From: Candidatus Omnitrophota bacterium
GTDB taxonomy: Bacteria > Omnitrophota > Gorgyraeia > Gygaellales > Profunditerraquicolaceae
Reading direction: 5' to 3'
NCBI GenBank assembly: GCA_041651115.1
Contig: JBAZJY010000001.1
Location: forward strand, 69,165 to 133,164
Length of the DNA: 64,000 nucleotides
The position numbers were made by a program, and so were the translations under genes. The notes under the pieces were generated by a model that worked only from the letters and a program-made list of their open reading frames with translations, did not search any database and was not told where the DNA came from. Each line of letters starts with the position of its first letter. The stretch's first letter is position 1. Below, one piece after another: positions 30,940-62,462 of this stretch.

Positions 30940-31308
30940 ATGAGGCTATCCAGATTCCTCCTTACGGTTTCTCTGGTTACGTCATTTTCCCTGCTTTACG
31001 TATATCAGCAGTCGGAAATCTTCCGGCTTGCTTACGCGGGGCAGAAGCGGGTAACGCGTTTTGAGGATTTGCTTGATAAGAACGCGGGATTAAAGTACAA
31101 TATAGCCAAGAATGTTTCTTTGACCCGCATCGGCAGTAAAGTTGCCGCTGACCCGGATTTTCAGATGCCTGACAGTTATAGGCTGATCAAGTTATCGCGG
31201 CCGTTGAACGGCCTTAAGGTAACGCAATACGCGCCAAAGAAAGAAACCCTGCTGTCGCGGTTGTTCGGGATAAAGCGGCAGGCTGAAGCAGCACTGAGCC
31301 AACAATAA
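30940..31308 (+). CDS. ftsL: Cell division protein FtsL-like (small bitopic membrane protein)
   Basis: A 122-aa product with one TM helix, in the canonical position between rsmH and ftsI. Its last 17 nt lie inside an inverted repeat. Confidence 0.55.
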   Translation: MRLSRFLLTVSLVTSFSLLYVYQQSEIFRLAYAGQKRVTRFEDLLDKNAGLKYNIAKNVSLTRIGSKVAADPDFQMPDSYRLIKLSRPLNGLKVTQYAPKKETLLSRLFGIKRQAEAALSQQ

Positions 31309-31608: not shown

Positions 31609-31620
31609 CCTTCACTCATT

Positions 31621-37210: not shown

Positions 37211-37217
37211 TCATAAT

Positions 37218-38492: not shown

Positions 38493-38495
38493 GAT

Positions 38496-39590
38496 ATGGT
38501 CCGCAACATAAGGTTGAATCTTTTTACTGTTACGGTCATCCTGATCTGCGTGGGGATCGTAATGATCTATAGTTCTTCCAGTATTTATGCCTGGGAGAAG
38601 TATAAAGACAGTTTTTTCTTCCTCAAAAGGCACCTCGCTTTTCTGTTTATCGGAGTAGCCCTGGCATTCCTGGCGATGTGCGCCGATTACCGCAAATTGC
38701 AGGAAGCTGCCAAGCCCTTATTGGCAGTATCCCTGCTTTTGTTGTTTTTGGTCTTGATACCGGGTATAGGCAGGGAGGTATCCGGAGCGCAGCGCTGGTT
38801 CAGGTTTAAGTTCCTAAGTTTCCAGCCGTCGGAACTGGCAATACTGGCAGTGATCGTTTATACCGCGGATTTTGTTTCTCGTAAACAAAACCTCCTGCGT
38901 AATTTCTGGAAAGGATTTATGCCGCCGATGTTCATTCTCGGCAGCACTGCGCTGCTTATTTTGATGCAGCCTGACCTCGGCACAACCATATCTTTAAGCG
39001 TAGTGGTGATGGTGATGGTATTTTCTGCCGGCACGCGGCTGACTTATCTATTGTCGCTTTTTCTGATGAGTTTACCGGCGCTGTACATATTGATCTTTAG
39101 CGTGCCATACCGCCGTATGCGTATCATGGCGTTTTTAAATCCCTGGCTTGATCCTAAAGGAAGCGGCTTCCAGATCATTCAGTCGCAGCTTGCATTAGGC
39201 TCCGGCGGGATATTCGGCGTGGGCCTTGGGCATTCGCGGCAAAAATTATTTTATTTGCCGGCTGCGCACACCGATTTTATTTTTTCAATCATCGGGGAAG
39301 AGCTCGGCCTTTTGGGAACGTTAAGCATTGTCATACTTTTTATGATCTTTGTCCGGCAGGGCCTGAAAGTGATCAGGAACGCGCCGGACAGATTCGGGCA
39401 TTTCTTAAGCCTCGGGCTGGTTTTAATGATCTGCCTCCGCGCGGCAATAAATATCGGGGTTTCCTGCGGCCTGCTTCCTACAAAAGGCCTGCCGCTGCCG
39501 TTCATCAGCTACGGCGGTTCTTCTTTGATGTTTGACATGGTTGCAGTAGGAATACTCCTGAACATCGCCCGCACCGGAGAATATCCATGA
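38496..39590 (+). CDS. ftsW: Peptidoglycan glycosyltransferase FtsW (SEDS family)
   Basis: A ten-TM SEDS protein (PSEL ... HTDFIFS). Cluster position. Confidence 0.85.
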   Translation: MVRNIRLNLFTVTVILICVGIVMIYSSSSIYAWEKYKDSFFFLKRHLAFLFIGVALAFLAMCADYRKLQEAAKPLLAVSLLLLFLVLIPGIGREVSGAQRWFRFKFLSFQPSELAILAVIVYTADFVSRKQNLLRNFWKGFMPPMFILGSTALLILMQPDLGTTISLSVVVMVMVFSAGTRLTYLLSLFLMSLPALYILIFSVPYRRMRIMAFLNPWLDPKGSGFQIIQSQLALGSGGIFGVGLGHSRQKLFYLPAAHTDFIFSIIGEELGLLGTLSIVILFMIFVRQGLKVIRNAPDRFGHFLSLGLVLMICLRAAINIGVSCGLLPTKGLPLPFISYGGSSLMFDMVAVGILLNIARTGEYP

Positions 39591-40678
39591 AACCTGCCAG
39601 GATACTTGTCGCTACCGGCGCAAGCGGAGGCCATATATTTCCGGCGCTGGCATTCCTTGAGGCGCTTAAAGATAAATATCCGCAAGCCAAAACGCTTTTA
39701 CTGCTGCCGGAAAAAAGCAAAACAAAGGTCCGCATTGACGAAGATGAATTTGATACCAGGTATATTTCTTTATCTTCTGTCAGCGCCGGCATAAACCGCG
39801 AAAGCATAAAAAGTTTTTTAGCCGCGATCAGGGGGATATTGCAAAGTATCCGCGCCTTGCTGAAATTCCATCCGGATATCGTAGTCGGTTTTGGCAGCGC
39901 TGCCAGTGTGCCCGCGGTAATTTTCGGCTGGCTGCTCAGGGCAAAAACGATCATACATGAACAAAATGTGATCCCCGGAAAAGCAACCCGGCTACTGGCG
40001 GAATTCAGCGATAAAATCGCTATTTCTTTTGAAGCGAGCCGCGGATATTTTAAGCGGCATCAGGATAAGATCGTGCTTACCGGAAATCCCTTGCGTAAGC
40101 AAATGGCGCCGGTAGCCAAAGACGCGGCATTGGGATACTTTAAATTTGATAAAAATAAATTGACCGTATTGGTTATGGGCGGCAGCCAGGGTAGCCGCAG
40201 GATAAACGAAGAATTCCTGAACGCGTTAACGCTGCTTTCGGACAAACAAAAGCTGCAGGTGATCCATTTGTCCGGCAGGCAGGATTATGTCCGCTTAAAA
40301 GAGCGGTATCAGGCATCCGGGGTAAGCTTTGCCTTATTTGATTTTTTCGGGCCGATGAATTACGCTTATTGCGCCGCTGATATTGCCTTGTCCAGGTCAG
40401 GCGCCACCACAGCCGCGGAGCTGATATTTTTTGCGCTGCCGGCAATGCTTTCGCCTTATCCTTACGCCTACGACCATCAGCATAAGAACGCAAAGGCGCT
40501 GGAAGAAAAAGGCTGCGCGTTTATCATTAAAGATCAGGATTTGAACCGTCAATTGCTAAAAGAAAAATTGGAAGCGCTGATCGCGGACCGTTCTTTGCTT
40601 GAGAAGATGCGCCGCAGTTACAGCGGCTTTAAGGTTGAGGATGCCGCCGGCTTGCTGGTAAAGGAGGCCTTGTCATGA
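39587..40678 (+). CDS. murG: UDP-N-acetylglucosamine--N-acetylmuramyl-(pentapeptide) pyrophosphoryl-undecaprenol N-acetylglucosamine transferase
   Basis: GT28 family (GGSGGHIFPALA ... MGGSQGS). Confidence 0.9.
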   Translation: MKPARILVATGASGGHIFPALAFLEALKDKYPQAKTLLLLPEKSKTKVRIDEDEFDTRYISLSSVSAGINRESIKSFLAAIRGILQSIRALLKFHPDIVVGFGSAASVPAVIFGWLLRAKTIIHEQNVIPGKATRLLAEFSDKIAISFEASRGYFKRHQDKIVLTGNPLRKQMAPVAKDAALGYFKFDKNKLTVLVMGGSQGSRRINEEFLNALTLLSDKQKLQVIHLSGRQDYVRLKERYQASGVSFALFDFFGPMNYAYCAADIALSRSGATTAAELIFFALPAMLSPYPYAYDHQHKNAKALEEKGCAFIIKDQDLNRQLLKEKLEALIADRSLLEKMRRSYSGFKVEDAAGLLVKEALS

Positions 40679-41454
40679 AAAGATTTTTTTTCGCGGTATT
40701 GGCCGTAAGCATTCTTTTTTATCCCTGCCTTTGCCGGGCAGAGGAAAAATGGAAGACTTCCAAAAGCACGCATTTTATAGTATACTTTAAAAACGCTCCG
40801 GAAAGTTTTATTGAGCAGTTGGTTGATAAAGCGGAATATTACTATGACCGGATCGCCGACAACCTCGGCTTTACGCGTTTTAATTTCTGGCTTTGGGATA
40901 ATCGCGCCAAGGTTTATATATACGACGACGCCAATGACTACCGCGTTTCCACCGGCCAGCCCGGCTGGTCCGCAGGCGCTGCGCGGCCGCGGGAAAAAAT
41001 AATCTATACTTATCCCTACGCGCAGGGGTTTTTTGAAACTATCCTGCCGCATGAAATGGGCCATATTATTTTTCGGGAGTTTGTGGGATTTGACAATCAT
41101 GCCATACCGGGTTGGCTTGACGAAGGCGTGGCGTCTTATCAGGAGAGCATGCGTTATTCCGCTGCCCTGGCGGTAGCAAAAAAGGCGGCGAGGGAAGGGG
41201 CGCTGATCCCGCTGGATAAGCTTGCGCAGATCAACCCGCAGTCGATCATTGACCAGTCTTCAGCGCAGCTTTATTATGCCGAGGCGATCAGCCTCGTAGA
41301 TTATTTAATCAAGGAGCATGGCAAGGATAATTTTGTGATCTTCTGCCAGAATTTACGCGATAAGAAGGACCTGCGCCAGTCGCTCTGCCTGGTCTATCCT
41401 TTTTCCGGGCTGCAGGACTTTGACGAAGCGTGGCAAAGATACCTTAAAAAATGA
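40675..41454 (+). CDS. Secreted HExxH zinc-metallopeptidase-like protein inserted between murG and murC
   Basis: A signal peptide and the motif LPHEMGHIIFREF with a downstream Glu. There is no counterpart in the canonical division-cell-wall cluster. Confidence 0.5.
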   Translation: MKRFFFAVLAVSILFYPCLCRAEEKWKTSKSTHFIVYFKNAPESFIEQLVDKAEYYYDRIADNLGFTRFNFWLWDNRAKVYIYDDANDYRVSTGQPGWSAGAARPREKIIYTYPYAQGFFETILPHEMGHIIFREFVGFDNHAIPGWLDEGVASYQESMRYSAALAVAKKAAREGALIPLDKLAQINPQSIIDQSSAQLYYAEAISLVDYLIKEHGKDNFVIFCQNLRDKKDLRQSLCLVYPFSGLQDFDEAWQRYLKK

Positions 41455-42836
41455 GCAAACACATTCATTTCATCGGCATTGGCGGCATTGGCATGAGCGG
41501 GATCGCGTTCATCCTGCTTAACCGGGGCGTGAAAGTAAGCGGCTCGGACGTGAAGAATACCAGGGTAACCGCCGGGCTTGCTGCTGCCGGAGCAAAAGTA
41601 TTTATCGGCCACAGCCCGGAGAATATCGGTATGGCGGATACAGTGGTTTATTCTTCCGCGGTAAAAGAAGATAACCCCGAGATGATTGAAGCGAGAAAGC
41701 GCGGCATACCCCTTATCAGGCGCGCGCAGGCGCTTGCCGGGTTAATGCAGGACAAGAAAGTCATTGCCGTAGCCGGCAGCCACGGTAAGACCACTACTAC
41801 TTCGCTTGTATCGCTTTTGCTTTCAGAGGCGGGCTTACGGCCCAGCGCGGCAATCGGCGGCATACTTAAAAACACGGATGCCAATACTTATTTCGGGGAC
41901 GGGGAATTTTTTGTTGCCGAGGCAGACGAATCCGACGGTTCTTTTCTTTATTACGATCCGCTCTATTCCATAATTACCAATATTGACCGTGAACACCTTG
42001 ATTATTACGGTAATTTTCAAAGCGAGTTGGACGCGTTCCGGCAGTTCATTGCCAAGACCAGGAATTCCGGCTGCATATTCTATTGCGCAGACGACGCGAA
42101 TTTAGAGAAGCTCGTGGGCCAGCATAAAGGAAGAAAGATCTCGTTCGGGCTTAACCCCGGAGCGGATATTTATCCGCTGGAGGTTAAAATGCAGGGGCTG
42201 GTTTCTTCTTTTGAATGCGCATATAAAGGTAAGCCGCTGGGAAGTTTCGGGCTTTCTTTAGCCGGGATACACAATGTTTCCAACGCGCTTTCCGTCATTG
42301 CCCTCGGCTTGGAGTTGGGCATAGATATAGAAACAATTAACAATACCCTCGTCGCGTATAAAGGTTCGGGCAGGCGCATGGAAGTCAGGTTCCGCAACAA
42401 CGATTATATGGTGATCGATGATTACGCGCATCATCCGACGGAAATAAGCGCTACTTTGCAGGCAGCCCGGAATATCGCGCCCGGCAGGCTGATCGCCGTA
42501 TTCCAGCCTCACCGCTATACGCGCACAAAGCTTTTATTGGATGAATTCGGCAGTTGTTTTGATCAGGCAGACCACGTGATTATCACGGATATCTATGCGG
42601 CAAGCGAGCCGGCCATAGAAGGGGTTTCCGGAATGAATATTTGCGAAAAGATCCGGCAGCGCAGGCCGCAAAAATCCGCGGCTTTTCTGCATAAAGAAGA
42701 ATTGCTCCCGGCAATACTTGGAATGCTCAAGGCCGGCGACCTTGTGGTCATGCTCGGCGCGGGGGATATTGTAAAGGTTTGCGATGAACTGGTGGGAGAA
42801 CTTAAGGGGCAGGGTCAGGCTCAAAGAGCCGCTTAA
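41451..42836 (+). CDS. murC: UDP-N-acetylmuramate--L-alanine ligase
   Basis: Mur ligase family (FIGIGGIGMSG ... VAGSHGKTTTT). Confidence 0.9.
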   Translation: MSKHIHFIGIGGIGMSGIAFILLNRGVKVSGSDVKNTRVTAGLAAAGAKVFIGHSPENIGMADTVVYSSAVKEDNPEMIEARKRGIPLIRRAQALAGLMQDKKVIAVAGSHGKTTTTSLVSLLLSEAGLRPSAAIGGILKNTDANTYFGDGEFFVAEADESDGSFLYYDPLYSIITNIDREHLDYYGNFQSELDAFRQFIAKTRNSGCIFYCADDANLEKLVGQHKGRKISFGLNPGADIYPLEVKMQGLVSSFECAYKGKPLGSFGLSLAGIHNVSNALSVIALGLELGIDIETINNTLVAYKGSGRRMEVRFRNNDYMVIDDYAHHPTEISATLQAARNIAPGRLIAVFQPHRYTRTKLLLDEFGSCFDQADHVIITDIYAASEPAIEGVSGMNICEKIRQRRPQKSAAFLHKEELLPAILGMLKAGDLVVMLGAGDIVKVCDELVGELKGQGQAQRAA

Positions 42837-43668
42837 GCTGCATACGACATTTAAGATCGGCGGCCCGGCAAAATATTTTATTGAACCGAGAGATGCCGTT
42901 GACCTGAAATTTCTGCTTGAGTCGGTAAAAAGCCGCAAGATCCCTTTAATGGTGATCGGGGCAGGCAGCAATATCCTTGTTGCTGACAGGGGCGTGAATG
43001 CCTGTGTGGTTAAATTAAGCCCGCAGGATTTCGGAAAAATCGATTTTAAGCCCGGGGGCTTCGTTGTTGGCGCGGGCTGCCCGCTTAACCGGGTGATCGC
43101 TGAATCAAAGAATCGCGGCGTTTCTTCTCTGGAGCTTTTGGCAGGCATACCCGGAACAGTAGGGGGCGCTCTGGTAATGAATGCGGGAGTGCCGGGAAAA
43201 AATATCGGCGATTTAGTTGAAGAAATCACGGTAATGGATTATAATGGTAAAGTAAAGCAGCTTAAGCGCAGTGAGGCGAAATTTACCTACCGCGGCTCAA
43301 AGCTCTCAAAATACATAATCCTGGCCGCTTCTTTCAGGTCGCGGCCTAAACGCGCGGAAGAGATCGCGGCAATGATCAGCAGCCGTTTGTCTATGCGCCG
43401 CGATAAACAGGAATGGTCTTTGCCTTCAGCAGGTTGCGTGTTTAAAAACCCGGCAGAAGAGATTTCCGCCGGCAGGCTGATAGACCTCTGCGGCCTTAAA
43501 GGCGAGCGCGCGGGCAACGCCGTTATTTCAGAAAAGCACGCGAATTTTATCGTTAACGCGGGAAGCGCAAGCGCCAGGGACGTTGCGCGGTTGATGCGCC
43601 TGGCGACGCGGCGGGTAAAAAATAAATTCAACATTGATTTGCAGCCGGAGATAAAAATATGGCGGTAG
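42784..43668 (+). CDS. murB: UDP-N-acetylenolpyruvoylglucosamine reductase
   Basis: FAD-binding MurB family (LHTTFKIGGPA ... GAGSN). Confidence 0.85.
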   Translation: MNWWENLRGRVRLKEPLKLHTTFKIGGPAKYFIEPRDAVDLKFLLESVKSRKIPLMVIGAGSNILVADRGVNACVVKLSPQDFGKIDFKPGGFVVGAGCPLNRVIAESKNRGVSSLELLAGIPGTVGGALVMNAGVPGKNIGDLVEEITVMDYNGKVKQLKRSEAKFTYRGSKLSKYIILAASFRSRPKRAEEIAAMISSRLSMRRDKQEWSLPSAGCVFKNPAEEISAGRLIDLCGLKGERAGNAVISEKHANFIVNAGSASARDVARLMRLATRRVKNKFNIDLQPEIKIWR

Positions 43669-44687
43669 ATGTAGCGAATTGCAGGTTACAAGTTCCGCCG
43701 CAGGCGGACCAGCCTACGGCTGGCACAAATCACGACGGCGAATGTTTCGGTAGGATCGGGGTCCTGATGGGCGGGCCGTCAACAGAAAGAGAGATTTCTT
43801 TAAAGTCCGGTAATGCCGTTTATGAAAGCTTAAAGGGGATCGGCCTTGACGTGATTGCCCTGGATATTAAGACTGCCGGCAGAGAAGAGAATCTGCATTT
43901 GATAAAATCTTCCGGCATAAGCTGCGCTTTTGTCGCCCTGCACGGATATTTCGGCGAAGACGGCAAGATCCAGGTGATCCTTGATGAAGCAGGCATACCG
44001 TATACCGGCTCAGGGGCCGAAGCCAGCAGGCTGGCAATGGATAAGGTTGCTTCCCGCGCGATATTCCAGGATAAGGGCATTAGGGTACCGCGTTCTGAAA
44101 TCGTGCTTAAAGATTCCAGTTTTTCTCCGGGTGATCTTTGCGCTGCGCTGGGCTTACCGCTGGTGGTTAAGCCTGCAACGCAAGGCTCAAGCGTCGGGCT
44201 TTCCATAGTAGATAAGGAACAGGATATGCCTGCGGCGCTTGCGTTGGCGCTTAGTTTTGATGAAAAAGCGATTGTGGAGGAATACATCCGCGGCCGCGAG
44301 CTGACCGTCGGCATATTAGAAGAGAAGGCCTTGCCGGTGGTAGAGATTATTCCGAAGCACAGGTTTTTTGATTTCGAGGCAAAATATCAATACGGATTGA
44401 CGGAATATATCGTGCCTGCCGAGCTGGACCCCACAGTAAGCCTGGAGCTTGCCGATAATGCGCTCCGGGCGCATAATGCGCTTGGCTGTTCCGGCTGTTC
44501 CCGCGTGGATATCATCCTGGCAAAAGGCAATACCCCTTTTGTGTTGGAGATCAACACTATTCCCGGATTAACGGCAACAAGCCTTTTACCGAAAGCGGCA
44601 AAAGCCGCGGGCATTGATTTTTCTCATCTTTGCGCTACCCTGATCCGGCTGGCATATGAAAAAGCGAAAAATAAAAGTACCCGTTAA
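43659..44687 (+). CDS. ddl: D-alanine--D-alanine ligase
   Basis: ATP-grasp Ddl family (VLMGGPSTEREISL ... GSSVG). The real start probably lies downstream of 43659, which would remove the roughly 30-aa N-terminal extension. Confidence 0.85.
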   Translation: MAVDVANCRLQVPPQADQPTAGTNHDGECFGRIGVLMGGPSTEREISLKSGNAVYESLKGIGLDVIALDIKTAGREENLHLIKSSGISCAFVALHGYFGEDGKIQVILDEAGIPYTGSGAEASRLAMDKVASRAIFQDKGIRVPRSEIVLKDSSFSPGDLCAALGLPLVVKPATQGSSVGLSIVDKEQDMPAALALALSFDEKAIVEEYIRGRELTVGILEEKALPVVEIIPKHRFFDFEAKYQYGLTEYIVPAELDPTVSLELADNALRAHNALGCSGCSRVDIILAKGNTPFVLEINTIPGLTATSLLPKAAKAAGIDFSHLCATLIRLAYEKAKNKSTR

Positions 44688-45450
44688 GCCGGCTGCCTCG
44701 GCTGCCGCGGTTGTACTTATTTTATTCATTTCTTTTAATCTGCTGGCGACCGCTGCGAGAAATTCCCGCCTCTTTATCGTGCGGGATGTGATCGTCAGAC
44801 AGGATATTGCTTCCGGGGAAAAGATCGACCTTTCTTTTCTTGCCGGCCGCAATATCATGGATATCAACCTGCAGGAGCAGGAGCGCAATATTACCAAGCT
44901 TTATCCGGGTTACAACCAGATCAAGCTTGTGCGTATATTTCCCGATCGGCTATTCGCGTATTTTATCAAGCGTAAGCCCGTGGCAGCCGTAAAACTGAAC
45001 CGTTATTTCTGCGTTGACGAAAACGCGGTATTATTTGATATGCCTGCGGCTGGGTCAGCGGCAAGCATAGAGCTTCCGGTTATCTACGGCCTCCAGGGAA
45101 AAATACCCGCTCCGCAGCCTGGCAGGAAATATAATGTCAGGGAACTGCTGCTTGCGGTGAATTTGACTAAGGTAGTAAAAAATAACCGCCAGCTGCGAGG
45201 GCTAAAGATAATACGCATTGACGTTACTAACCCGGCAAATGCCTCGCTTTCGGTATCGCTTCCTGCTATGGCGCAGGCCAAAGTTCCGGCAGGCATGGAG
45301 ATAAAAGTGGGGCAGGATTATCTGGCGGATAAAATGAATATCTTAGCCAGCCTGCTCATTCAGGGCAGGAGCGACTGGGATAATATAAAATATATTGATT
45401 TGAGATTTAAAGAACCGGTAATAAAATTTAAAGATAAGGCAAAAAAGTAA
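44656..45450 (+). CDS. ftsQ: Cell division protein FtsQ (POTRA domain)
   Basis: A basic N-terminus, one TM helix and a POTRA-like region. Canonical position between ddl and ftsA. Confidence 0.7.
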   Translation: MKKRKIKVPVKPAASAAAVVLILFISFNLLATAARNSRLFIVRDVIVRQDIASGEKIDLSFLAGRNIMDINLQEQERNITKLYPGYNQIKLVRIFPDRLFAYFIKRKPVAAVKLNRYFCVDENAVLFDMPAAGSAASIELPVIYGLQGKIPAPQPGRKYNVRELLLAVNLTKVVKNNRQLRGLKIIRIDVTNPANASLSVSLPAMAQAKVPAGMEIKVGQDYLADKMNILASLLIQGRSDWDNIKYIDLRFKEPVIKFKDKAKK

Positions 45451-45451
45451 A

Positions 45452-46708
45452 ATGTTTAAAAATTACATTTGCGGTGTGGACATCGGTTCAAGCAAGATCT
45501 CTGCGGTGCTGGCAAAATTTGACCGCAAGCGCATCAGCGGGCTTTATTTCGGGACAGTAGATTCCCGGGGCGTAAAAGCCGGGGCAGTCGTTGATTCAAT
45601 TGAATTGACCGGATGCATTGAACGCCTTCTTAAAAAATTAAAAGCCGATTCCGGCGTAAAGATCAAGGTGGTTTATTCCAATATCTCCGGCCATGACCTG
45701 ATTGTCAAGCACAGCCGGGCGATCCTGCCTTTGGCGGAAAGAGGCAACAAGGTTATCACCTTGTCGGATATTTATAAAGTCAATGATATGGCGCGTATAT
45801 TGGGCTCAAGCCTTGAAGAAGAGGTGATCCATCAAATGCCCTATGGCTACGCGATAGATTCCAAGAGCGACATCCTTAACCCCCTCGGCCTTTATAGCCA
45901 CAGGCTGGAGACCGACCTGCTGCTGATCTCCGCGCGAATGTCGTGCGTGCAAAGCGTGATCCGGGTGATCAACCAGGCCGGCTATGAGATCAAAGACCTG
46001 TTTTTTTCAGGCCTGGCTACTGCCAAGGCAGTGCTCGGCAAAAACTCCGGAGAAGGGATAAGCGCTGTCTGCGATATCGGCAGCGACGTTACAGAGTTAT
46101 TGATATTTCACGGCAACCTGCTTAAGGCCATTGAGATCCTGCCGCAGGGCGGCGATGACCTGACGCATGAGATCGCCGAAACGCTCAAAATTCCTTTTGA
46201 ACTTGCCGAGGAAGTAAAAAAATCCCACTCCAGCATTGGAGACTCCAGCCTTATAGATGAGAATAAGGAAATATTAATAAAGAAGAATAATATCTATAAG
46301 CCGATCAAACAAAGGGCGGTTTCGGAAATGGTTACTTCCCGGGCAAAGCAGCTTTGCCAAAATATCCGGGCGGCGATAGAAAAGACCGTTCCCGTAGATA
46401 ACTTGGATAATTTTATCGTTACCGGTAGGGCCGTGCTGCTGGACGGCCTTATGGAAGCGCTGGAAAATAATTTAGGAGTAACGGTCAAGCTTGGCCGGGC
46501 CAGCAATCCGGGAATCGCCCCTCTGGTAAACAGCTATGATGCGCTCGCAGGCCAGAAATACCTTGTTTATCTTACCTGCCTCGGCATAATCTGCCAGGTC
46601 ATACAGGCAGATGACCCCTATTTGTTGTCATCCAACCATCAACCTAGTCCAAATAAGCTCGTCAGGCTGCTGGACAGGGCTAAGGAAGTGTATCAGGAAT
46701 ACTTTTAA
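45452..46708 (+). CDS. ftsA: Cell division protein FtsA
   Basis: Actin-like ATPase fold (VDIGSSKISAV ... ). 418 aa. Confidence 0.9.
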   Translation: MFKNYICGVDIGSSKISAVLAKFDRKRISGLYFGTVDSRGVKAGAVVDSIELTGCIERLLKKLKADSGVKIKVVYSNISGHDLIVKHSRAILPLAERGNKVITLSDIYKVNDMARILGSSLEEEVIHQMPYGYAIDSKSDILNPLGLYSHRLETDLLLISARMSCVQSVIRVINQAGYEIKDLFFSGLATAKAVLGKNSGEGISAVCDIGSDVTELLIFHGNLLKAIEILPQGGDDLTHEIAETLKIPFELAEEVKKSHSSIGDSSLIDENKEILIKKNNIYKPIKQRAVSEMVTSRAKQLCQNIRAAIEKTVPVDNLDNFIVTGRAVLLDGLMEALENNLGVTVKLGRASNPGIAPLVNSYDALAGQKYLVYLTCLGIICQVIQADDPYLLSSNHQPSPNKLVRLLDRAKEVYQEYF

Positions 46709-46837
46709 ATGAGGCCATAACTTATGGAGCGTGTGAAAGCGCGAACATAAGTTATTGGGCCGAATTAATCCCGCAGCTGCGAGTAGGTCCCAACAGAACC
46801 TACGAGCTGCTTAGCTGCCGGGATCCACGTTATTTGA

Positions 46838-46865
46838 TTGACCCTGCCGGTTTGTTGTGTATAAT
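46838..46865 (+). promoter_or_regulatory. Candidate promoter (TTGACC-16-TATAAT) immediately upstream of yggS
   Basis: Hexamers at 46838-46843 and 46860-46865. The yggS GTG start is only about 9 nt downstream, which implies a very short leader. Confidence 0.45.
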
Positions 46866-46873
46866 AATGTATC

Positions 46874-47569
46874 GTGATAACAGAAAATATCGTCAGGATA
46901 CGGCAGAGGGTTGCCTCTGCCTGCTCGCGGGCAGGCCGGGCCCCTGCGTCAGTAACACTCGTTGCTGTTACTAAGAACCGCGGAGTGGAAGAAATAAAAG
47001 CGGCCATTACCAACGGCGTAACCGATATCGGTGAGAACCGGGTGCAGGAAGCCCTTTTGAAATACCAACACCTATCACCTGACACCTATCACCTAACACC
47101 TATAAGCTGGCATCTGGTTGGCCATTTGCAGACGAATAAAGCCAAAGAAGCAGTGGGGATTTTTGACCTGATCCATTCAGTGGACAGCCGGCGACTGGCA
47201 GAAGAGATTGATAAGCAGGCGTTAAAAATAAATAAGGTCCAGGATTGTTTGATTGAGGTTAATGTTTCCGGCGAAGCGTCAAAATTCGGGGTAAAGCCGG
47301 TTGCGGCAGCCGGGCTGATAAAAGAAATATCCGGATTGAAAAATATCAGCGTTAAAGGCCTGATGACAATCGCGCCGATGGCTGATGATCCGGAAAAAGC
47401 CAGGCCGTATTTCAGGCAGTTGAGAGAGCTTAGGGATAATATCAACACGCTTGGAATTTGGGATTTGAAATTTGGAATTTTATCAATGGGTATGACCGAC
47501 GATTTTGAAGTTGCAGTAGAAGAAGGCGCGACAATCGTCAGGATAGGCAGGGCGATATTTAAAGACTAA
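46874..47569 (+). CDS. yggS: YggS-family pyridoxal-phosphate homeostasis protein
   Basis: The alanine racemase N-terminal-like fold (LVAVTKNRG ... GENRVQE ... WHLVGHLQTNK). Confidence 0.85.
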   Translation: MITENIVRIRQRVASACSRAGRAPASVTLVAVTKNRGVEEIKAAITNGVTDIGENRVQEALLKYQHLSPDTYHLTPISWHLVGHLQTNKAKEAVGIFDLIHSVDSRRLAEEIDKQALKINKVQDCLIEVNVSGEASKFGVKPVAAAGLIKEISGLKNISVKGLMTIAPMADDPEKARPYFRQLRELRDNINTLGIWDLKFGILSMGMTDDFEVAVEEGATIVRIGRAIFKD

Positions 47570-47658: not shown

Positions 47659-48480
47659 ATGAAAATTGGGATTATTGGTTACGGGAATATGGGCTCGGCA
47701 ATTGCCCGGCAGCTCAAAAACAATTATGAGGTATTGGTTTTTGATAAAGATAAGGCCAGGCTTGGCAGTGCTGACGGCATAGCCGCTACGGCGAGCATTG
47801 CCGAGCTCGTGGAAAAATCAGGGATCGTGATCCTGGCAGTTAAGCCGCAGGATTTTTCCGATGCTTTGGCGGCTATCAAGGCAGTTGCAAAAAATAAATT
47901 ATTCATTTCCATCGCTGCCGGAATAAGCGCAACGTACATTGAAGATGCGCTTGGTCAGGCAAGGGTGATCAGGACCATGCCGAATATGCCGGCAAAGATC
48001 GGAGAAAGCATGACCTGCCTGGCGCAGGGAAGATTTGCTACATTAGATGATCTTGATACCGCGGAAAACCTTTTTGAATATATGGGTGAAGTCTTGGTAA
48101 TTGAAGAAAATATGATGAACCAGGCTACGGCAATTTCGGGAAGCGGCCCGGCTTACGTGTGCAATTTCCTTGAATCGCAGGGGCTTGGCCCGGAGAATGT
48201 CCCGGACGATAAAAAGGCTTATTTCCTGGATATTTTTCAGAAGGCAGCGCGGGAATTGGGCTTCAGCGAGCATGACGCAAGGCTTTTGACAAAGGCGACA
48301 TTTAACGGGACTTTAAGTTTTTTGAAACGGGAAAAAATATCACCTGCGGAATTAAGAGAGCAAGTAACTTCCAAGGGTGGTACTACTGAAGCGGCGCTGG
48401 TAACATTAAATAAAGGCGGTTCTTTGGTTGATGCTGTTAAGGCCGCGGCTAAACGGGCGGAAGAGTTATCAAGGGGGTAA
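47659..48480 (+). CDS. proC: Pyrroline-5-carboxylate reductase
   Basis: A Rossmann motif (IGIIGYGNMGSAIA) and the P5CR C-terminal domain (SKGGTTEAAL). Confidence 0.85.
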   Translation: MKIGIIGYGNMGSAIARQLKNNYEVLVFDKDKARLGSADGIAATASIAELVEKSGIVILAVKPQDFSDALAAIKAVAKNKLFISIAAGISATYIEDALGQARVIRTMPNMPAKIGESMTCLAQGRFATLDDLDTAENLFEYMGEVLVIEENMMNQATAISGSGPAYVCNFLESQGLGPENVPDDKKAYFLDIFQKAARELGFSEHDARLLTKATFNGTLSFLKREKISPAELREQVTSKGGTTEAALVTLNKGGSLVDAVKAAAKRAEELSRG

Positions 48481-48481
48481 A

Positions 48482-49342
48482 ATGGGTAAGATCGGCATTA
48501 TCGGCGGCAGCGGATTATATAATATTGAAGGTATCAAAAATGTGAAGAAAGTTTCCGTGGTGACGCCTTTTGGCAAGCCATCGGATAAATTTATCACTGG
48601 AAAACTTGAGGGTAGGGAAGTGGTGTTCTTGCCGCGCCACGGGGTTGGCCACCGCATTTCGCCCAGCGAAATAAATTACCGCGCCAATATTTACGCAATG
48701 AAAAAACTCGGCGTGGAAAGGATCGTTTCCGTAACCGCCTGCGGCAGCCTGCGTGAAGATTTTAAGCCGTTGGATTTTGTTATTCCGCATCAATTCGTGG
48801 ATCGCACAAACCAGGCGCGGCCAATGACTTTTTTCGGCTCAGGGATAGTCGCGCATATAAGTTTTGCTGATCCGGTTTGCCCTGGAACCGCAGAAGTAGT
48901 CAGCCGCGCAGCGAAAAGTTCCGGCGTTATCGTGCATGACGGCGCGACTTACATAAATATGGAAGGCCCGGCTTTTTCTACCCGCGCGGAATCGGAATTA
49001 TACCGCAAATGGGGAATGGATATTATCGGCATGACCAATATGTCGGAGGCAAAGCTGGCCCGCGAAGCTGAGATCTGCTATGTGACCCTGGCTGCGATCA
49101 CCGACTACGACTGTTGGTATAAATCAAGGGAATCAGTTACCCTGGAAATGGTCATACAAAATCTTTTTAAGAACGTGGATAACGCGAAGAAAATAATCCG
49201 GGAGTTCGTAAAAAATATGCCGCAGGAAAGAAGCTGCGGTTGTGGCTTTGCCCTGAAGGACGCGATAGTTACTGATCGCAAACTGATCCCGGCGAAAGTC
49301 AAAAAAGACCTGAAGATATTTATCGGAAAATATGGAATATAA
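48482..49342 (+). CDS. mtnP: S-methyl-5'-thioadenosine phosphorylase
   Basis: PNP/MTAP family (IGIIGGSGLY ... LPRHG). ATG 48482 is chosen; the track ORF begins at 48428. Confidence 0.8.
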   Translation: MGKIGIIGGSGLYNIEGIKNVKKVSVVTPFGKPSDKFITGKLEGREVVFLPRHGVGHRISPSEINYRANIYAMKKLGVERIVSVTACGSLREDFKPLDFVIPHQFVDRTNQARPMTFFGSGIVAHISFADPVCPGTAEVVSRAAKSSGVIVHDGATYINMEGPAFSTRAESELYRKWGMDIIGMTNMSEAKLAREAEICYVTLAAITDYDCWYKSRESVTLEMVIQNLFKNVDNAKKIIREFVKNMPQERSCGCGFALKDAIVTDRKLIPAKVKKDLKIFIGKYGI

Positions 49343-52085
49343 AAATACACTAAACTTACCCAAGACCGATTTTCCCATGAAAGCGGACTTGCCTAAGCGC
49401 GAGCCGCTTTTATTGGAGCGTTGGAAAGGCGAAGATATTTATCAGCTGATCGTTAAGAAATCAGAAGGAAGCCCAAGGTACGTCCTGCATGACGGCCCGC
49501 CTTATGCCAACGGCAATATCCATATCGGCCATGCTTTAAATAAAACACTGAAGGATATTGTGGTTAAATATAAGACCATGCGCGGATATTTTTCACCCTA
49601 TGTCCCGGGATGGGATTGCCACGGGCTGCCGATAGAGCACGCGCTTTTTAAAGAGCTGAAGATTAATAAATCCCAGATCTCGCAGGTAGAATTCCGTAAA
49701 AAGGCACACGAGTATGCGATGAAATTTGTGGACACGCAGCGCGAGCAGTTCAAGCGCCTCGGCGTAACAGGGGATTGGCCCAACCCATACCTGACGCTTA
49801 CCCCGGAATATGAAGTAGGCATCCTGAATTCTTTTAAACTGCTGCGCGAAAAAGGCTATATTTACCGCGGCTTAAAACCGGTTAACTGGTGTTTTAGATG
49901 CGAAACCGCGCTGGCGGAAGCGGAAGTTGAATATGAAGACCATAGTTCGCCGTCTATCTTCGTAAGATTCAAGCTGGCAGATGCCGGAAAATTCGGCAAA
50001 GATGCTTACCTGGTAATTTGGACCACTACTCCCTGGACATTGATGGCGAACGTCGCGGTAGCAGTGCATCCTAATTTTACCTATCATTGTATCAAGACCG
50101 ATAAAGGGGATTTGATCGTCGGCGACAAAGACCTGTTCCCTGATCTTTTGTCAAGGCTGGGGATCACTGATCCGGTTGTCACAAGCACAATGCCCGGCAA
50201 AGAGCTTGAAGGATTGACGTATCAGCATCCTTTTTTAGAGAGAAAAGGCAAAGTAGTGCTGGCGGATTATGTAGCTGCCGGAGACGGGACCGGACTCGTG
50301 CATACTGCGCCGGGCCACGGAAACGAAGATTATGTCACCGGTGTAAAATATAAATTGGAAACCGTAATGCCGGTGGATGCGCGCGGCCGTTACGATGAAA
50401 GCGTGCCCGAACAATTCCGTAAAATGAACGTGCTTGAGGCGAATAAGGCGATCCTGGAAATGATGCAGGAAAGCAAAGCGCTTTTGTGGGCAGGGCAATT
50501 ACAGCACTCTTACCCGCATTGCTGGAGATGCAAGAATCCGATCATCTTTCGGGCAACCAACCAATGGTTTTTAAACCTTGATCATGAAGATCTACGTAAA
50601 AAGCTGGTGGAGGCAATTGAAAAAGAAGTGGTATGGGTCCCTGCGGCAGGCAAGGAACGCATTAAGGCAATGGTCCAACTGCGGCCTGACTGGTGCCTTT
50701 CCCGTCAGAGATATTGGGGCGTACCTATTCCGGCGCTGATCTGTAAAAAATGCGGGCACGAAGATATTTATCTTTCGGTAGTGGATAAATTTATCGGCGC
50801 AGTTGCCAAAGAAGGCACGGACAGCTGGTTTATCAGGGATGTCAAAGATTTTATTCCCGAAGGATTAAAATGCCCGAAGTGCGGCCATACCGATTTCCAG
50901 CCGGGTTCGGATATTCTTGACGTGTGGTTTGATTCCGGGGTAAGCCACCAGGCAGTATTAAAAAACAGGAAAGAGCTGGGAGGCGTTCCCTGCGATTTGT
51001 ATCTTGAAGGTTCTGACCAGCATCGCGGCTGGTTCCAGGCTTCGCTTATTCCCGGCATATGCATAGAAGGAAAGCCGCCGTTTAAGTCAGTGCTCACGCA
51101 CGGCTTTGTGGTTGATGGCGAAGGCAGAAAAATGTCCAAGTCATTGGGCAATGTGATTGCGCCCGATGAGATCATCAAGAATTATGGGGCAGATATTCTG
51201 AGGCTTTGGGTTGCTTCCAGCGACTACAATGAAGATATAAGAATATCGCCGCTGATCCTTACGCGGCTTGCCGAAGCATACCGTAAGATCAGAAATACGG
51301 CGCGCTTTATCTTAAGCAATTTATATGATTTTGATCCTGATGCGGACAAGGTTGAGCACAAAGACCTGAAAAAAATAGATAAATGGATATTGTCCAGTAT
51401 TAATAGCCGGCTGCTTGAGCCTGCGGAAAAAGCATACGAGGGATTTGAATTTTACAAAGCTTATCAGGCGGTCTATGATTTTTGCAACATAGAGTTATCG
51501 TCGCTGTATCTGGATATGGCAAAGGGCAGGCTCTATACTTACGCGGCGAAATCCGTGGAAAGAAAGGCTGCGCAGACTGCGATGCATGCGGCTCTTAGTG
51601 CTTTGGTAAGGGCAATGGCGCCGATATTGGTATTTACCGCGGAAGAGATCTGGCAGTGTATGCTCAAGGCAAAAGCGGAGCGCGCGATTGCCAGCGTGCA
51701 TCTGGCGGCTTGGCCGGCCGAGGCTGATATCTTACCGGAAGAGGGCTTAAAAGAAATTTTTGCATTGATCCCGGAAGTAACAAAAGTGCTGGAAGAGAAG
51801 CGCAGCGCCGGTTTGATCGGCAGTTCTTTTGACGCGAAAATAAAACTATTGACAAATAATGAAATTCGTTATAATTATTTATCCGCTTTAAGGCAGGATC
51901 TGCCGGAAATCTTTAAAGTTTCGCAGGTTGAGGTTGAAAAGCGTGAGGGGCCGGCCGGCATAGAAGTGAGCAAGGCCGACGGCATTAAGTGCGAGCGCTG
52001 CTGGAATTATTCGCATTCGGTAGGGGCTGATAAGGATCATCCTTTAATCTGCGACAGGTGTTGTCGTGCCATAACAGGAAAGTAA
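49332..52085 (+). CDS. ileS: Isoleucine--tRNA ligase
   Basis: HIGH (HIGHALN) and KMSKS motifs, an editing domain, and C-terminal zinc-finger cysteines (CERCWNY ... CDRCCRA). Confidence 0.95.
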   Translation: MEYKNTLNLPKTDFPMKADLPKREPLLLERWKGEDIYQLIVKKSEGSPRYVLHDGPPYANGNIHIGHALNKTLKDIVVKYKTMRGYFSPYVPGWDCHGLPIEHALFKELKINKSQISQVEFRKKAHEYAMKFVDTQREQFKRLGVTGDWPNPYLTLTPEYEVGILNSFKLLREKGYIYRGLKPVNWCFRCETALAEAEVEYEDHSSPSIFVRFKLADAGKFGKDAYLVIWTTTPWTLMANVAVAVHPNFTYHCIKTDKGDLIVGDKDLFPDLLSRLGITDPVVTSTMPGKELEGLTYQHPFLERKGKVVLADYVAAGDGTGLVHTAPGHGNEDYVTGVKYKLETVMPVDARGRYDESVPEQFRKMNVLEANKAILEMMQESKALLWAGQLQHSYPHCWRCKNPIIFRATNQWFLNLDHEDLRKKLVEAIEKEVVWVPAAGKERIKAMVQLRPDWCLSRQRYWGVPIPALICKKCGHEDIYLSVVDKFIGAVAKEGTDSWFIRDVKDFIPEGLKCPKCGHTDFQPGSDILDVWFDSGVSHQAVLKNRKELGGVPCDLYLEGSDQHRGWFQASLIPGICIEGKPPFKSVLTHGFVVDGEGRKMSKSLGNVIAPDEIIKNYGADILRLWVASSDYNEDIRISPLILTRLAEAYRKIRNTARFILSNLYDFDPDADKVEHKDLKKIDKWILSSINSRLLEPAEKAYEGFEFYKAYQAVYDFCNIELSSLYLDMAKGRLYTYAAKSVERKAAQTAMHAALSALVRAMAPILVFTAEEIWQCMLKAKAERAIASVHLAAWPAEADILPEEGLKEIFALIPEVTKVLEEKRSAGLIGSSFDAKIKLLTNNEIRYNYLSALRQDLPEIFKVSQVEVEKREGPAGIEVSKADGIKCERCWNYSHSVGADKDHPLICDRCCRAITGK

Positions 52086-52147
52086 ATTAGGCCCCGCGTT
52101 TCCTAAGAAATTTAGGTACGGGGGTATATTCAGAAAGGAAGAGCGGG

Positions 52148-52531
52148 GTGAAAAAGAAACTGACGAAAAAAGAGCTGGGTGAATACAAGAAGCTGATATT
52201 AAAGAGAAAAGACGAAATTGTAGAAGACATTCAGCATATCTCCGAAGACACGCTTAAAAAATCGCAGAAAGACGCGTCGGGAGACATTTCCGGCTATACC
52301 TACCACATGGCTGACGTAGCCACCGATACCTATGACCGGGAATTTTCCCTTAGCCTTGCCTCAAGCGGCAGGGAAATGCTTTACGGTCTTGATGATGCAT
52401 TAAAAAGGATAGAAGAAGGCGCGTTCGGAGTTTGCGAAGAGTGCAAGGTGCTGATTGCCAAGTCCCGCTTAAAAGCAGTGCCTTGGGCGCGCTACTGCGT
52501 GAAGTGCCAGCAGAAAAAGGAAAAGAAATAG
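52148..52531 (+). CDS. DksA/TraR-family C4 zinc-finger protein
   Basis: A C-terminal CxxC-N17-CxxC motif (CEECKV ... CVKCQ) after a coiled-coil region. GTG start. Confidence 0.7.
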   Translation: MKKKLTKKELGEYKKLILKRKDEIVEDIQHISEDTLKKSQKDASGDISGYTYHMADVATDTYDREFSLSLASSGREMLYGLDDALKRIEEGAFGVCEECKVLIAKSRLKAVPWARYCVKCQQKKEKK

Positions 52532-52535
52532 CCTT

Positions 52536-52979
52536 TTGATGATCGTTATCATCGTTTTCACGGTCCTCGCTCTAGACCAGTTCAGCAAATACCTGATCAC
52601 AAATAATCTTTCCCTGCACCAGTCTGTGCCGGTCATAAACGGCATATTCCATATAACGCTTGTTCATAACCGCGGCGCGGCTTTTGGGCTGCTCAAGGGC
52701 CAGCTTTATTTATTTATGCTTGCCTCTCTTGGTGCTATAATACTTATCGGCTTGCATCTTAAGCAGCAGCGGGGCAAAAGGCTTGATCTTTACACTTTTT
52801 CTTTGACGCTTATTCTTGCCGGAGCGCTGGGCAATCTCATTGACCGCGCGATGTTCGGCCATGTGATTGATTTTTTGGATTTCCGCGTCTGGCCGGTATT
52901 TAATATTGCCGACAGCGCGATAACCGTTGGAGCAATATTACTGGGGTGGAAGATATGTATCCGGTCATCTGCAAAATAG
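52536..52979 (+). CDS. lspA: Lipoprotein signal peptidase II
   Basis: LspA motifs (NRGAAFGLL ... FNIADSAI) in a membrane protein. Confidence 0.9.
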   Translation: MMIVIIVFTVLALDQFSKYLITNNLSLHQSVPVINGIFHITLVHNRGAAFGLLKGQLYLFMLASLGAIILIGLHLKQQRGKRLDLYTFSLTLILAGALGNLIDRAMFGHVIDFLDFRVWPVFNIADSAITVGAILLGWKICIRSSAK

Positions 52980-53644
52980 GGCCGTTTCAGGTATACTCTT
53001 ACGGCTTGATGCTTGTTTTGGCTTTTATTGCCGCTACGTCGCTTGTGCTGGCAGAAGCAAAACGGCAGAAGCTTGACCATGAAGCGATCTTTAATTTTTT
53101 GTTTACAGCGCTGGTCTGCGGCATAATCGGCAGCCGGCTTTTTTATGTGCTGGAGCACCTTGGTTACTATGTAAAGAATCCGCTGGAGATCATTATGCTG
53201 CAGCAGGGAGGCCTGTCCTGGTTCGGCGGCCTGATGCTGGGCAGCAGCGCGGGAATATGGTATTTAAAGAAGAAGAAGCTCCCGATATACCGGACGCTTG
53301 ATCTGATAGTTCCGTATCTGGCGCTGGCGCAATCTATCGGCAGGATCGGCTGCCTGCTTAACGGCTGTTGTTACGGCAGGACGCCGTTTTTGCCTACGCA
53401 GATGTATGCGTCGCTGGCGCTTCTGGCGATCTACATTATTTTGCGGATGATGCAGGCAAGCCCGAAGCCGCAGGGCACGATATTTTTCTCTTACCTATTG
53501 TTATATTCCATTAAAAGGTTTACCATTGAATTCTGGCGGGAAGATAATCCGGCAGTCTTCTACGGCCTGAGCCTTTTCCAGCTCTTGAGCATCGTCTTAT
53601 TCGTCTTAGCCGCTGCCAAGCTCTGCCTGATCAAGAAAAAATAA
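52946..53644 (+). CDS. lgt: Prolipoprotein diacylglyceryl transferase
   Basis: Lgt family (GPFQVYSYGLMLVLAFIAA ... GRIGCLLNGCCYG). Confidence 0.85.
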   Translation: MEDMYPVICKIGPFQVYSYGLMLVLAFIAATSLVLAEAKRQKLDHEAIFNFLFTALVCGIIGSRLFYVLEHLGYYVKNPLEIIMLQQGGLSWFGGLMLGSSAGIWYLKKKKLPIYRTLDLIVPYLALAQSIGRIGCLLNGCCYGRTPFLPTQMYASLALLAIYIILRMMQASPKPQGTIFFSYLLLYSIKRFTIEFWREDNPAVFYGLSLFQLLSIVLFVLAAAKLCLIKKK

Positions 53645-53698
53645 TAAGTAGGGACAGAGACTACTTTTCTGCAGAAAAGTAGTCTCTGTCCCTACTTA
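53645..53698. repeat. 54-bp perfect palindrome (27-bp arms, no loop) between lgt and rluD
   Basis: TAAGTAGGGACAGAGACTACTTTTCTGC|GCAGAAAAGTAGTCTCTGTCCCTACTTA. It shares TAGGGAC...GTCCCTA termini with the 74-bp element. Confidence 0.8.
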
Positions 53699-53711
53699 TA
53701 CAAGGATATAT

Positions 53712-54620
53712 ATGCAAGAATATACGCTTACCGTATCTGAACAGGATGTCGGCAGCCGCCTGGACATATTTTTATTTGAATTTTCCAAGCGCGACAATAT
53801 CGGCCTGTCCCGCACTTTTATCCAGAAACTGATTGAAAACGGCAATGTCAGCGTTAACGGCGTAGTTGTAAACAAGGCCAAGCATAAAATGAAACTCGCC
53901 GAAGCGGTCCGGGTTTCCTTTGAAGAGCATAAGCAGTCTTCGGCGGCAGCAGAAGACATTCCCCTGGAAATTATTTATGAAGACGATGACCTCGCGGTAA
54001 TAAATAAACCTATCGGGTTAGTTACTCATCCTGCGCCCGGAAATTACGAGCACACGCTGGTCAATGCGCTATTACACCACATCAAGAAACTTTCCGATAT
54101 TAATCCTGAAAGGCCGGGCATAGTTCATCGTTTGGATAAAGATACTTCCGGGCTGCTTGTCATCGCCAAAAATAATGCCAGCCATTTGAATCTCGCCCAG
54201 CAATTTGCCAAGCATGCAATCAAACGCCAGTATGCCGCCGTTGTTTTCGGAAAAATGGAATTTGACGAGAATATTATTGAGATCCCTATCGGAAGGCATC
54301 CGTACAAGCGTAAAAGTATGTCCGTAGGCTTTGGTAAGAGCACAAAATACGCCAAGACCTTATATCGCACAATAAAGCGCGGCAAAGAATTCACGCTGGT
54401 TGAGCTGGAACCGTTTACCGGAAGGACGCATCAGTTAAGGGTGCACCTGGCGTTTATCGGCCATCCGATCATCGGAGATATCAAATACGGCAAGCATACG
54501 GTTTTTAAGCGGCTTGCCCTGCACGCGAAATTACTCGGCTTTACCCATCCCCGCACCGGGAAATATCTGGAATTTTCCTGCCCCGTGCCGAAAGAATTCG
54601 GGGAGATAGTAGGAAAATAA
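53712..54620 (+). CDS. rluD: 23S rRNA pseudouridine synthase, RluA/RluD family
   Basis: An S4-like N-terminus and the catalytic motif HRLDKDTSGLLVIAKN. Confidence 0.85.
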   Translation: MQEYTLTVSEQDVGSRLDIFLFEFSKRDNIGLSRTFIQKLIENGNVSVNGVVVNKAKHKMKLAEAVRVSFEEHKQSSAAAEDIPLEIIYEDDDLAVINKPIGLVTHPAPGNYEHTLVNALLHHIKKLSDINPERPGIVHRLDKDTSGLLVIAKNNASHLNLAQQFAKHAIKRQYAAVVFGKMEFDENIIEIPIGRHPYKRKSMSVGFGKSTKYAKTLYRTIKRGKEFTLVELEPFTGRTHQLRVHLAFIGHPIIGDIKYGKHTVFKRLALHAKLLGFTHPRTGKYLEFSCPVPKEFGEIVGK

Positions 54621-54770: not shown

Positions 54771-54812
54771 GATATTTAAAACTTTGATAAACAATTGAAG
54801 AAAGGGATAGCG

Positions 54813-62445: not shown

Positions 62446-62462
62446 TTGCCGCAGTATAGAAT

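Follow-up and report, generated by a model that had tools for sequence, protein, structure and literature searches.

The division and cell-wall cluster closes with ftsA

We analysed a 64,000-nucleotide stretch of a Candidatus Omnitrophota contig (JBAZJY010000001.1; hereafter the window, with positions counted from its first letter), focusing on ftsA and the missing ftsZ at the end of its division and cell-wall (dcw) cluster. The open reading frame (ORF) map and the sequence place ftsA at 45452-46708 on the forward strand, followed by a 165-bp spacer (46709-46873) and an ORF with a GTG start (46874-47569), which is yggS. ftsA lies directly 3' of ftsQ and closes the cluster. From mraZ to ftsA the canonical dcw order is kept, apart from a Peptidase_MA_2 gene that stands between murG and murC; the ftsZ that would complete it is missing. 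The genes of the cluster and of the block downstream are as follows.

29565..30002, + strand: mraZ (Pfam MraZ, E = 6e-41)
30027..30938, + strand: rsmH (mraW; Pfam Methyltransf_5, E = 1e-106)
30940..31308, + strand: putative ftsL, assigned by its position between rsmH and ftsI; 122 amino acids with an N-terminal hydrophobic/membrane segment
31621..33345, + strand: ftsI-type class B penicillin-binding protein (Pfam PBP_dimer and Transpeptidase)
33323-34789, + strand: murE (three Mur ligase domains)
34765-36132, + strand: murF (three Mur ligase domains)
36122..40678, + strand: mraY, murD, ftsW and murG (Pfam annotation of the identical contig)
40675..41454, + strand: Peptidase_MA_2 gene between murG and murC (Pfam PF13485, E = 2e-16)
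41451..44687, + strand: murC, murB and ddl (Pfam)
44656..45450, + strand: ftsQ (Pfam FtsQ_DivIB_C, 28.6 bits against a cutoff of 21)
45452..46708, + strand: ftsA, final gene of the division cluster (TIGR01174; Pfam FtsA and SHS2_FTSA)
46874..47569, + strand: yggS, pyridoxal phosphate homeostasis protein (TIGR00044, 190.8 bits against a cutoff of 106.25)
47659..54620, + strand: proC, PNP_UDP_1 (pnp-family) phosphorylase, ileS, dksA-like zinc finger, lspA, lgt and rluD (Pfam)

FtsW matches TIGR02614 at 421 bits (cutoff 337.5). The SpoVD/FtsI-type NCBIfam matches of the ftsI-type ORF all fall under their equivalog cutoffs, and the putative ftsL (30940-31308) has no match in Pfam or NCBIfam.

With authentic E. 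coli FtsZ from NC_000913 as the query, tblastn and phmmer --max over all six frames of the window returned nothing better than E = 0.59. Pfam annotation of the main ORFs gave housekeeping genes and nothing tubulin-like, and a six-frame similarity search of the spacer (46709-46873) revealed neither FtsZ coding capacity nor an FtsZ remnant. An earlier note on this DNA, made from the letters alone, had described ftsA as followed by a 165-bp intergenic region and then yggS-proC without ftsZ; the ORF map, the family assignments and the FtsZ searches bear this out. The order from mraZ to ftsA in its gene list also stands, except that the list omitted the Peptidase_MA_2 gene (40675-41454) and named an ftsL that is assigned by position only. 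Its remark that yggS-proC usually lies downstream of ftsZ applies only to some lineages, and in E. coli the gene after ftsZ is lpxC. In Gram-positives, ylmE/yggS lies downstream of ftsZ.

The cluster ends at ftsA in all relatives examined

The window FtsA is 100% identical to NCBI MFA5155879.1, 'MAG: cell division protein FtsA [Candidatus Omnitrophota bacterium]' (MAG, metagenome-assembled genome), and the identical sequence is on record from ENA (a 146-kb contig), NCBI and JGI, the longest contig on record being 647 kb. A scan of one genome per GTDB species yielded a first set of 22 relatives with 46-73% FtsA identity, whose titles read Omnitrophota/Omnitrophica (17), 'uncultured Planctomycetales' (three) and 'bacterium' (one). 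In 15 of the 22, ftsA leads directly into yggS-proC and usually on into pnp-ileS-dksA-lspA-lgt-rluD, as in the window. In locus L023 it is followed by proC, and in the subclade L005/6/7/9 by a convergent polyprenyl synthetase gene and unrelated genes. The cluster ends at ftsA in all of the loci L001-L023, and no ftsZ was found in them by tblastn or phmmer.

To reach deeper relatives, we ran an exhaustive HMMER search with the window FtsA against 1.84 billion representative proteins. This uncovered a large FtsA family with the C-terminal tail ...(L/V/I)YQEYF, extending down to 25-30% identity to the window FtsA; those members that carry NCBI names are Omnitrophota. At 36-38% identity, P0280 (a 612-kb JGI contig), P0283 (GCA_030692045.1) and P0282 have the same cluster with its Peptidase_MA_2 gene; in each, ftsA is the last member, and radical-SAM and other genes come next. 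At 28-30% identity, the clusters of P0165 and P0422 (GCA_028716625.1, a 984-kb contig) likewise end at ftsA. L032 (FtsA about 30% identical) has two small ORFs for membrane proteins after ftsA, with yggS-proC-pnp-ileS-dksA-lspA-lgt-rluD behind them. It thus shares the window's downstream block, which makes the arrangement ancient in the phylum.

ORFs lying between ftsA and the next conserved gene were noted in the deepest lineage sampled, namely a 120-amino-acid soluble protein in L030 (11232-11594) and membrane proteins of 154 and 84 amino acids in L032 (11328-12084). They were considered as possible FtsZ fragments and rejected, as they are membrane or unknown proteins that are not FtsZ-like.

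A metagenome scan with a narrow FtsA alignment added 80 contigs (810 kb in total) in which the cluster ends at ftsA, and none of them gave an FtsZ match at E <= 1. Fifty-three of the 80 have at least 900 bp after ftsA; in 43 of these the next gene is yggS, at a median gap of 128 bp, and in 10 it is a different gene. Overall, about 110 related contigs carry an FtsA 29-77% identical to that of the window, and most run straight into yggS-proC-pnp-ileS. In about 1.4 Mb from approximately 110 Omnitrophota contigs, tblastn and phmmer --max on six-frame translations found no ftsZ, and the longer ftsA-yggS spacers of relatives hold no remnant of one. An Omnitrophota lineage with an ftsA-ftsZ pair was sought from 77% down to about 28% FtsA identity, by the search of representative proteins, two profile searches and inspection of genomic context, and none was found. 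Thus, ftsZ is not in the cluster or its surroundings in any Omnitrophota locus examined. The earlier note had proposed examining synteny in related genomes and had regarded the junction as unusual; the former yields the same ending, without ftsZ, in all relatives examined, and the latter gives way to the view, drawn from the approximately 110 related contigs, that this is the normal state of the phylum Omnitrophota.

FtsA is an intact gene under strong constraint

The window FtsA scores 203.3 bits against the TIGR01174 equivalog (cutoff 175.85) and matches Pfam SHS2_FTSA at 46 bits as well as Pfam FtsA. The ratio of nonsynonymous to synonymous substitution rates (dN/dS) of ftsA is 0.04-0.11 in seven close pairs of relatives, indicating strong purifying selection. 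Mean identity to the window protein is 48.5% for FtsA, comparable to MurB (48%) and ProC (49%) and above FtsQ (36%).

An AlphaFold2 model built from 72 sequences has a mean predicted local distance difference test (pLDDT) value of 90.9 and a predicted template modelling score (pTM) of 0.87. When the model was compared with the PDB by Foldseek, the top 19 structures were all FtsA (including Vibrio 7Q6F, E. coli 7Q6D, S. aureus 3WQT and Thermotoga 4A2A/1E4F), with PilM and MreB ranking below them; solved FtsA structures were also matched by sequence with HMMER. Judged by sequence and predicted structure, FtsA is a real, functional gene with an intact fold and 1C (SHS2) subdomain. The model ends in a low-confidence linker (residues 389-397) and a C-terminal helix (402-417), and the tail ...(K/R)E(V/I)YQEYF does not vary within the clade. 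The hydrophobic moment of this helix is 0.61, compared with 0.57 for the membrane-targeting sequence of E. coli FtsA, and the helix is predicted to be an amphipathic membrane-targeting helix behind a flexible linker.

The FtsZ-tail-binding positions of FtsA are degenerate

Omnitrophota-type FtsAs and other FtsAs were aligned to E. coli FtsA, and the positions near-invariant in the non-Omnitrophota proteins were listed. The comparison set comprised 131 FtsAs without a YQEYF-type tail, from Proteobacteria, Firmicutes, Patescibacteria, Chloroflexi, Nitrospirae and others. Most of the near-invariant positions are also kept in Omnitrophota, for example D14, G16, D108, D138, P146, D210, G212, A254, E255, K258 and G336. 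Those not kept are D242, R300 and E303 in subdomain 2B (E. coli numbering), which are conserved as follows.

131 FtsAs without YQEYF-type tail: D242 96%, R300 95%, E303 90%, full triad 89%
150 FtsAs with YQEYF tail: D242 13%, R300 17%, E303 21%, full triad 6.7%

Of the 14 triad exceptions among the 131, several end in near-YQEYF tails and probably count as Omnitrophota-type. The window FtsA reads E-R-Q instead of D-R-E. The triad was mapped by an ungapped local alignment anchored by the conserved E295-I-I, and the HMMER pairwise alignment to the E. coli structure agrees. E303 sits within the FtsZ-binding region, and a salt bridge between it and R379 of FtsZ is predicted, in parallel with the Thermotoga FtsA:FtsZ-peptide structure (PMC13423804).

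With one exception, the Omnitrophota-type FtsAs that retain the full triad fall in the P0165/P0422 sublineage. The cluster representatives there that depart from D-R-E read N-K-E, Y-G-E, G-R-D, S-G-D, D-R-K, S-K-N and similar, at 55-84% overall identity to P0165. This variation gives the impression of an ancestral site that is still decaying, not of one being maintained, and it leaves room for a retained partner in that sublineage. As the alignments indicate, the FtsZ-tail pocket of Omnitrophota FtsA is no longer conserved and is free to vary, suggesting that the protein is probably uncoupled from FtsZ.

Nucleotide motifs of FtsA

The phosphate-1 motif DIGSSK is kept in the window FtsA. In the subclade of the window (residues 208-214 and 325-326), the phosphate-2 motif is DIGSD(V/I)T, not DIGGGT/DxGGGT, and the adenosine motif is G-R, not G-G; the window protein itself has DIGSDVT and G-R. 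Deeper Omnitrophota FtsAs have DIGAxxT and G-G. PilM proteins that carry DIGAxxT remain able to bind ATP. The FtsAs of the window subclade may differ in their nucleotide binding.

The ftsA-yggS spacer resembles an operon boundary

Two consecutive stable hairpins extend from the ftsA stop codon on the forward strand (46708-46766 and 46768-46824). Their predicted RNA fold has an energy of -59.8 kcal/mol (z = -4.1), and none of 200 shuffled sequences was equally stable. The hairpins include a perfect 10-nt inverted repeat and are missing a U-tract; they are likely an operon-end terminator or an RNA-stabilising structure. Both are unique within the window, which speaks against a dispersed repeat. 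Downstream, a sigma-70-like promoter match, TTGACC-16 nt-TATAAT (46838-46865, forward strand), agrees with 11 of 12 consensus positions, as a consensus match alone. Its -10 box ends 9 nt before the GTG of yggS, which would imply a leaderless or very short-leader transcript, or else a chance match. The simplest reading of the sequence is that the spacer would be an operon boundary, in which a promoter-like site serving the yggS-proC-pnp-ileS block comes after the hairpins.

Other genes of the window

Besides the dcw cluster, the window encodes further division and elongation genes.

6852-9041, + strand: ftsK (all four Pfam domains: FtsK_4TM, alpha, SpoIIIE and gamma)
9044-9880, + strand: rodZ (HTH_25 and RodZ_C)
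61372..63768, + strand: mreB, mreC and mreD (Pfam MreB_Mbl, 503 bits; MreC and MreD also matched)

The genes mreBCD, rodZ, murB-G, mraY and ddl are all retained. The ftsK and rodZ genes, whose products would still be at hand for division and elongation if FtsZ is lacking, lie 3 nt apart, so that divisome and elongasome genes are neighbours in an organism apparently without FtsZ.

The Peptidase_MA_2 gene, which lies outside the canonical cluster, overlaps its neighbours by a few bases and so appears to be co-transcribed with them. A gene of this family occupies the same murG/murC site in L025, L026, L028, L030 and L032 (approximately 5260-6070), that is, in five of five Pfam-annotated lineages with FtsA identity down to about 28%. 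The first relative set has it in about 10 of its 22 loci.

Two proteins encoded before the mre genes have few family matches. The first (54795-58895) has 1366 residues and a signal-peptide-like N-terminus, its sole family match being a 60-residue guanylate kinase fragment (residues 860-920). The second (58978-59919) has 313 residues and is likely a coiled coil; its sole match is a weak, below-threshold one to the crescentin rod domain. Its gene lies just upstream of aroA-mreB-mreC-mreD, and L032 has an unannotated ORF of 259 amino acids at the same position. Elsewhere, an FMN (flavin mononucleotide) riboswitch (Rfam RF00050, 105.8 bits) at 13225-13346 precedes ribBA (13408-14607), with ribH and ribD/ribE homologues next, in an ordinary arrangement.

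FtsZ in the Omnitrophota literature

Published statements on FtsZ in this phylum diverge. Rivas-Marin et al. (2016) detected FtsZ in 'Omnitrophica bacterium OLB16' alone, and left undecided whether two further Omnitrophica genomes truly lacked it (PMC5147048). Pende et al. (2021, Nat Commun, PMC8178401) placed Omnitrophica among the FtsZ-less phyla of the Planctomycetes-Verrucomicrobia-Chlamydiae (PVC) superphylum in a figure legend and a supplementary table. Their survey, based on hidden Markov models (HMMs), gives FtsZ as 'NA' in Omnitrophus magneticus, GWA2_41_15, RIFOXYB12_FULL_50_7 and SM23_29, with FtsA in three of the four, and lists OLB16 with both FtsZ and FtsA. According to NCBI taxonomy, OLB16 (taxid 1617433) is now Candidatus Hinthialibacteria bacterium OLB16, in the phylum Candidatus Hinthialibacterota. 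This reclassification removes the sole FtsZ-positive 'Omnitrophica' and reconciles the literature.

The absence of FtsZ from Omnitrophica is thus already known, having been tabulated in 2021 (PMC8178401). That entry reports the same phylum-level absence without an analysis of synteny or of FtsA, and counted OLB16 as an FtsZ-positive member. The main genomics paper on Omnitrophota (Seymour et al. 2023) makes no mention of Fts genes (PMC10066038), and our literature search found no paper on FtsA function without FtsZ in Omnitrophota, nor on FtsA uncoupled from FtsZ. The phylum-wide synteny, the resolution of OLB16 and the constrained FtsA without an FtsZ-binding triad are absent from the literature searched.

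Loss of ftsZ and its alternatives

Of the two outcomes raised by the earlier note, a relocated ftsZ or an absent one that might make this an FtsZ-less bacterium, the evidence favours absence. The lack of ftsZ in the loci of relatives, the degenerate FtsA triad and the 2021 survey together make true loss of FtsZ with retention of FtsA the best reading. We consider it fairly probable that the division and cell-wall operon of Omnitrophota, a phylum of the PVC superphylum, closes with ftsA owing to a loss of ftsZ early in the history of the lineage, most likely genome-wide.

Several points weigh against this interpretation. Reviews of the PVC superphylum state that Omnitrophica have FtsZ on the basis of OLB16 (PMC5945725), and a 2025 paper places Omnitrophota among the phyla with conserved division genes (PMC12283558); PVC reviews of 2016, 2017 and 2025 group the phylum with those using FtsZ, the first two relying on OLB16. 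The genomes of the 2021 survey are incomplete MAGs. The DNA covered here comprises the 64-kb window and, in relatives, stretches no more than about 10 kb from ftsA, and an ftsZ elsewhere in a genome lies outside that scope. The 150 'Omnitrophota-type' FtsAs were grouped by the C-terminal tail, and a taxonomic label is available for only some of them. For D242 and R300 (R301 in Thermotoga), a part in FtsZ-tail binding is presumed, as reportedly found by Pichoff and Lutkenhaus (2007) and Szwedziak et al. (2012). In the P0165/P0422 sublineage, 9 of 20 cluster representatives keep D-R-E, which could mean a retained partner. Finally, the division mechanism proposed below is wholly inferred.

The main alternative is that ftsZ has merely moved and is encoded elsewhere in the same genome, with division proceeding conventionally. 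Non-adjacent ftsA and ftsZ accessions do occur in some other phyla of the table of Pende et al., e.g. Poribacteria and Sumerlaeota (PMC8178401). A relocated gene would agree with the intact triad in about half of the P0165 sublineage and with the retention of a strongly constrained FtsA, which in model bacteria works with FtsZ; moreover, our searches covered only the window and the surroundings of the cluster. However, the HMM survey found no FtsZ in four of the four genomes still classified as Omnitrophica (PMC8178401), and no ftsZ appeared in the 1.4 Mb or so of Omnitrophota DNA around the cluster. The triad, intact in 89% of other FtsAs, survives in 6.7% of Omnitrophota-type ones and varies even among close relatives, which would be unexpected with an FtsZ partner present. 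We regard relocation as unlikely.

A second alternative is that a highly divergent protein of the tubulin/FtsZ superfamily, or an unrelated new cytoskeletal protein, is encoded elsewhere, replaces FtsZ and was missed by sequence searches. Candidates of an uncharacterised kind exist in the window, namely the 313-residue coiled-coil protein with its weak crescentin-rod match and the 1366-residue protein with a guanylate kinase fragment, and anammox planctomycetes reportedly were proposed by van Niftrik and colleagues in 2009 to use a novel division-ring protein. On the other hand, nothing tubulin-like was detected in the window by Pfam on the main ORFs or by phmmer --max, and no uncharacterised gene accompanies ftsA consistently from lineage to lineage. 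This explanation seems to us quite improbable. An assembly or binning artefact, in which a mis-join at the ftsA-yggS junction of a metagenome contig dropped ftsZ, an error the earlier note had raised, can be practically dismissed, as the same junction with short spacers has been assembled independently in at least 58 contigs from many studies, the identical FtsA is on record from ENA, NCBI and JGI, and sublineages with three other downstream contexts also lack ftsZ.

If ftsZ was indeed lost early in the Omnitrophota lineage, its members would divide without FtsZ. Membrane-bound FtsA, probably as filaments, would then organise FtsQ/FtsL, FtsW/FtsI and FtsK without a Z-ring. The MreB-RodZ-MreCD system encoded in the window would probably contribute, as it does in the FtsZ-less Chlamydiae, where it organises the synthesis of the septal wall. 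A bolder proposal, which we put forward tentatively as possible rather than probable, is a phylum-wide, FtsA-centred, FtsZ-free divisome, in which the pocket would have been lost, the nucleotide site of the subclade remodelled, and FtsA made the primary membrane-bound cytoskeletal organiser of septal wall synthesis. It would represent a third mechanistically distinct route beside those of Chlamydiae and Planctomycetes.

Comparison with known division systems

Like the organism of the window, Chlamydiota belong to the PVC superphylum, lack ftsZ, and have peptidoglycan synthesis genes, FtsK, FtsQ/L, FtsW/FtsI, MreB and RodZ; the window counterparts of these retained genes lie at 6852-9880, 29565-45450 and 61372-63768. 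Chlamydiae are also without FtsA (PMC8178401 table; PMC12283558), whereas Omnitrophota keep a constrained FtsA and a complete collinear division cluster. The FtsZ-less Planctomycetota (Phycisphaerae, Planctomycetales and anammox bacteria) are PVC relatives as well, some of which undergo binary fission with peptidoglycan genes retained (PMC5147048, PMC12283558). In them, ftsA and ftsB are gone as well and the cluster is broken up (PMC12283558), in contrast to the Omnitrophota window, which is intact from mraZ to ftsA. Retention of FtsA is what separates Omnitrophota from these two known FtsZ-less PVC phyla.

Compared with the canonical FtsA-FtsZ proto-ring of E. coli and Thermotoga (4A2A, 7Q6D), the window FtsA has the same fold (template modelling scores of 0.75-0.87) and shares the 1C subdomain, the C-terminal amphipathic helix and the place directly after ftsQ. 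Unlike in the canonical system, ftsZ does not adjoin ftsA, D242/R300/E303 are not conserved, and the subclade carries the motifs DIGSD(V/I)T and G-R.

FtsZ is near-universal in bacteria, and division without it is a long-standing open question that has been studied mainly in Chlamydiae and Planctomycetes, both of which lost FtsA together with FtsZ. For the PVC literature, the present results bring a correction, since the claim that Omnitrophica have FtsZ rests on OLB16, which is no longer in the phylum. Omnitrophota are abundant and mostly ultra-small. If FtsZ loss is true, they would represent a natural experiment in which the membrane anchor of the Z-ring persists without the ring. It would become testable whether FtsA alone forms filaments and recruits or activates FtsQLB and FtsWI, and which FtsA residues serve FtsZ only.

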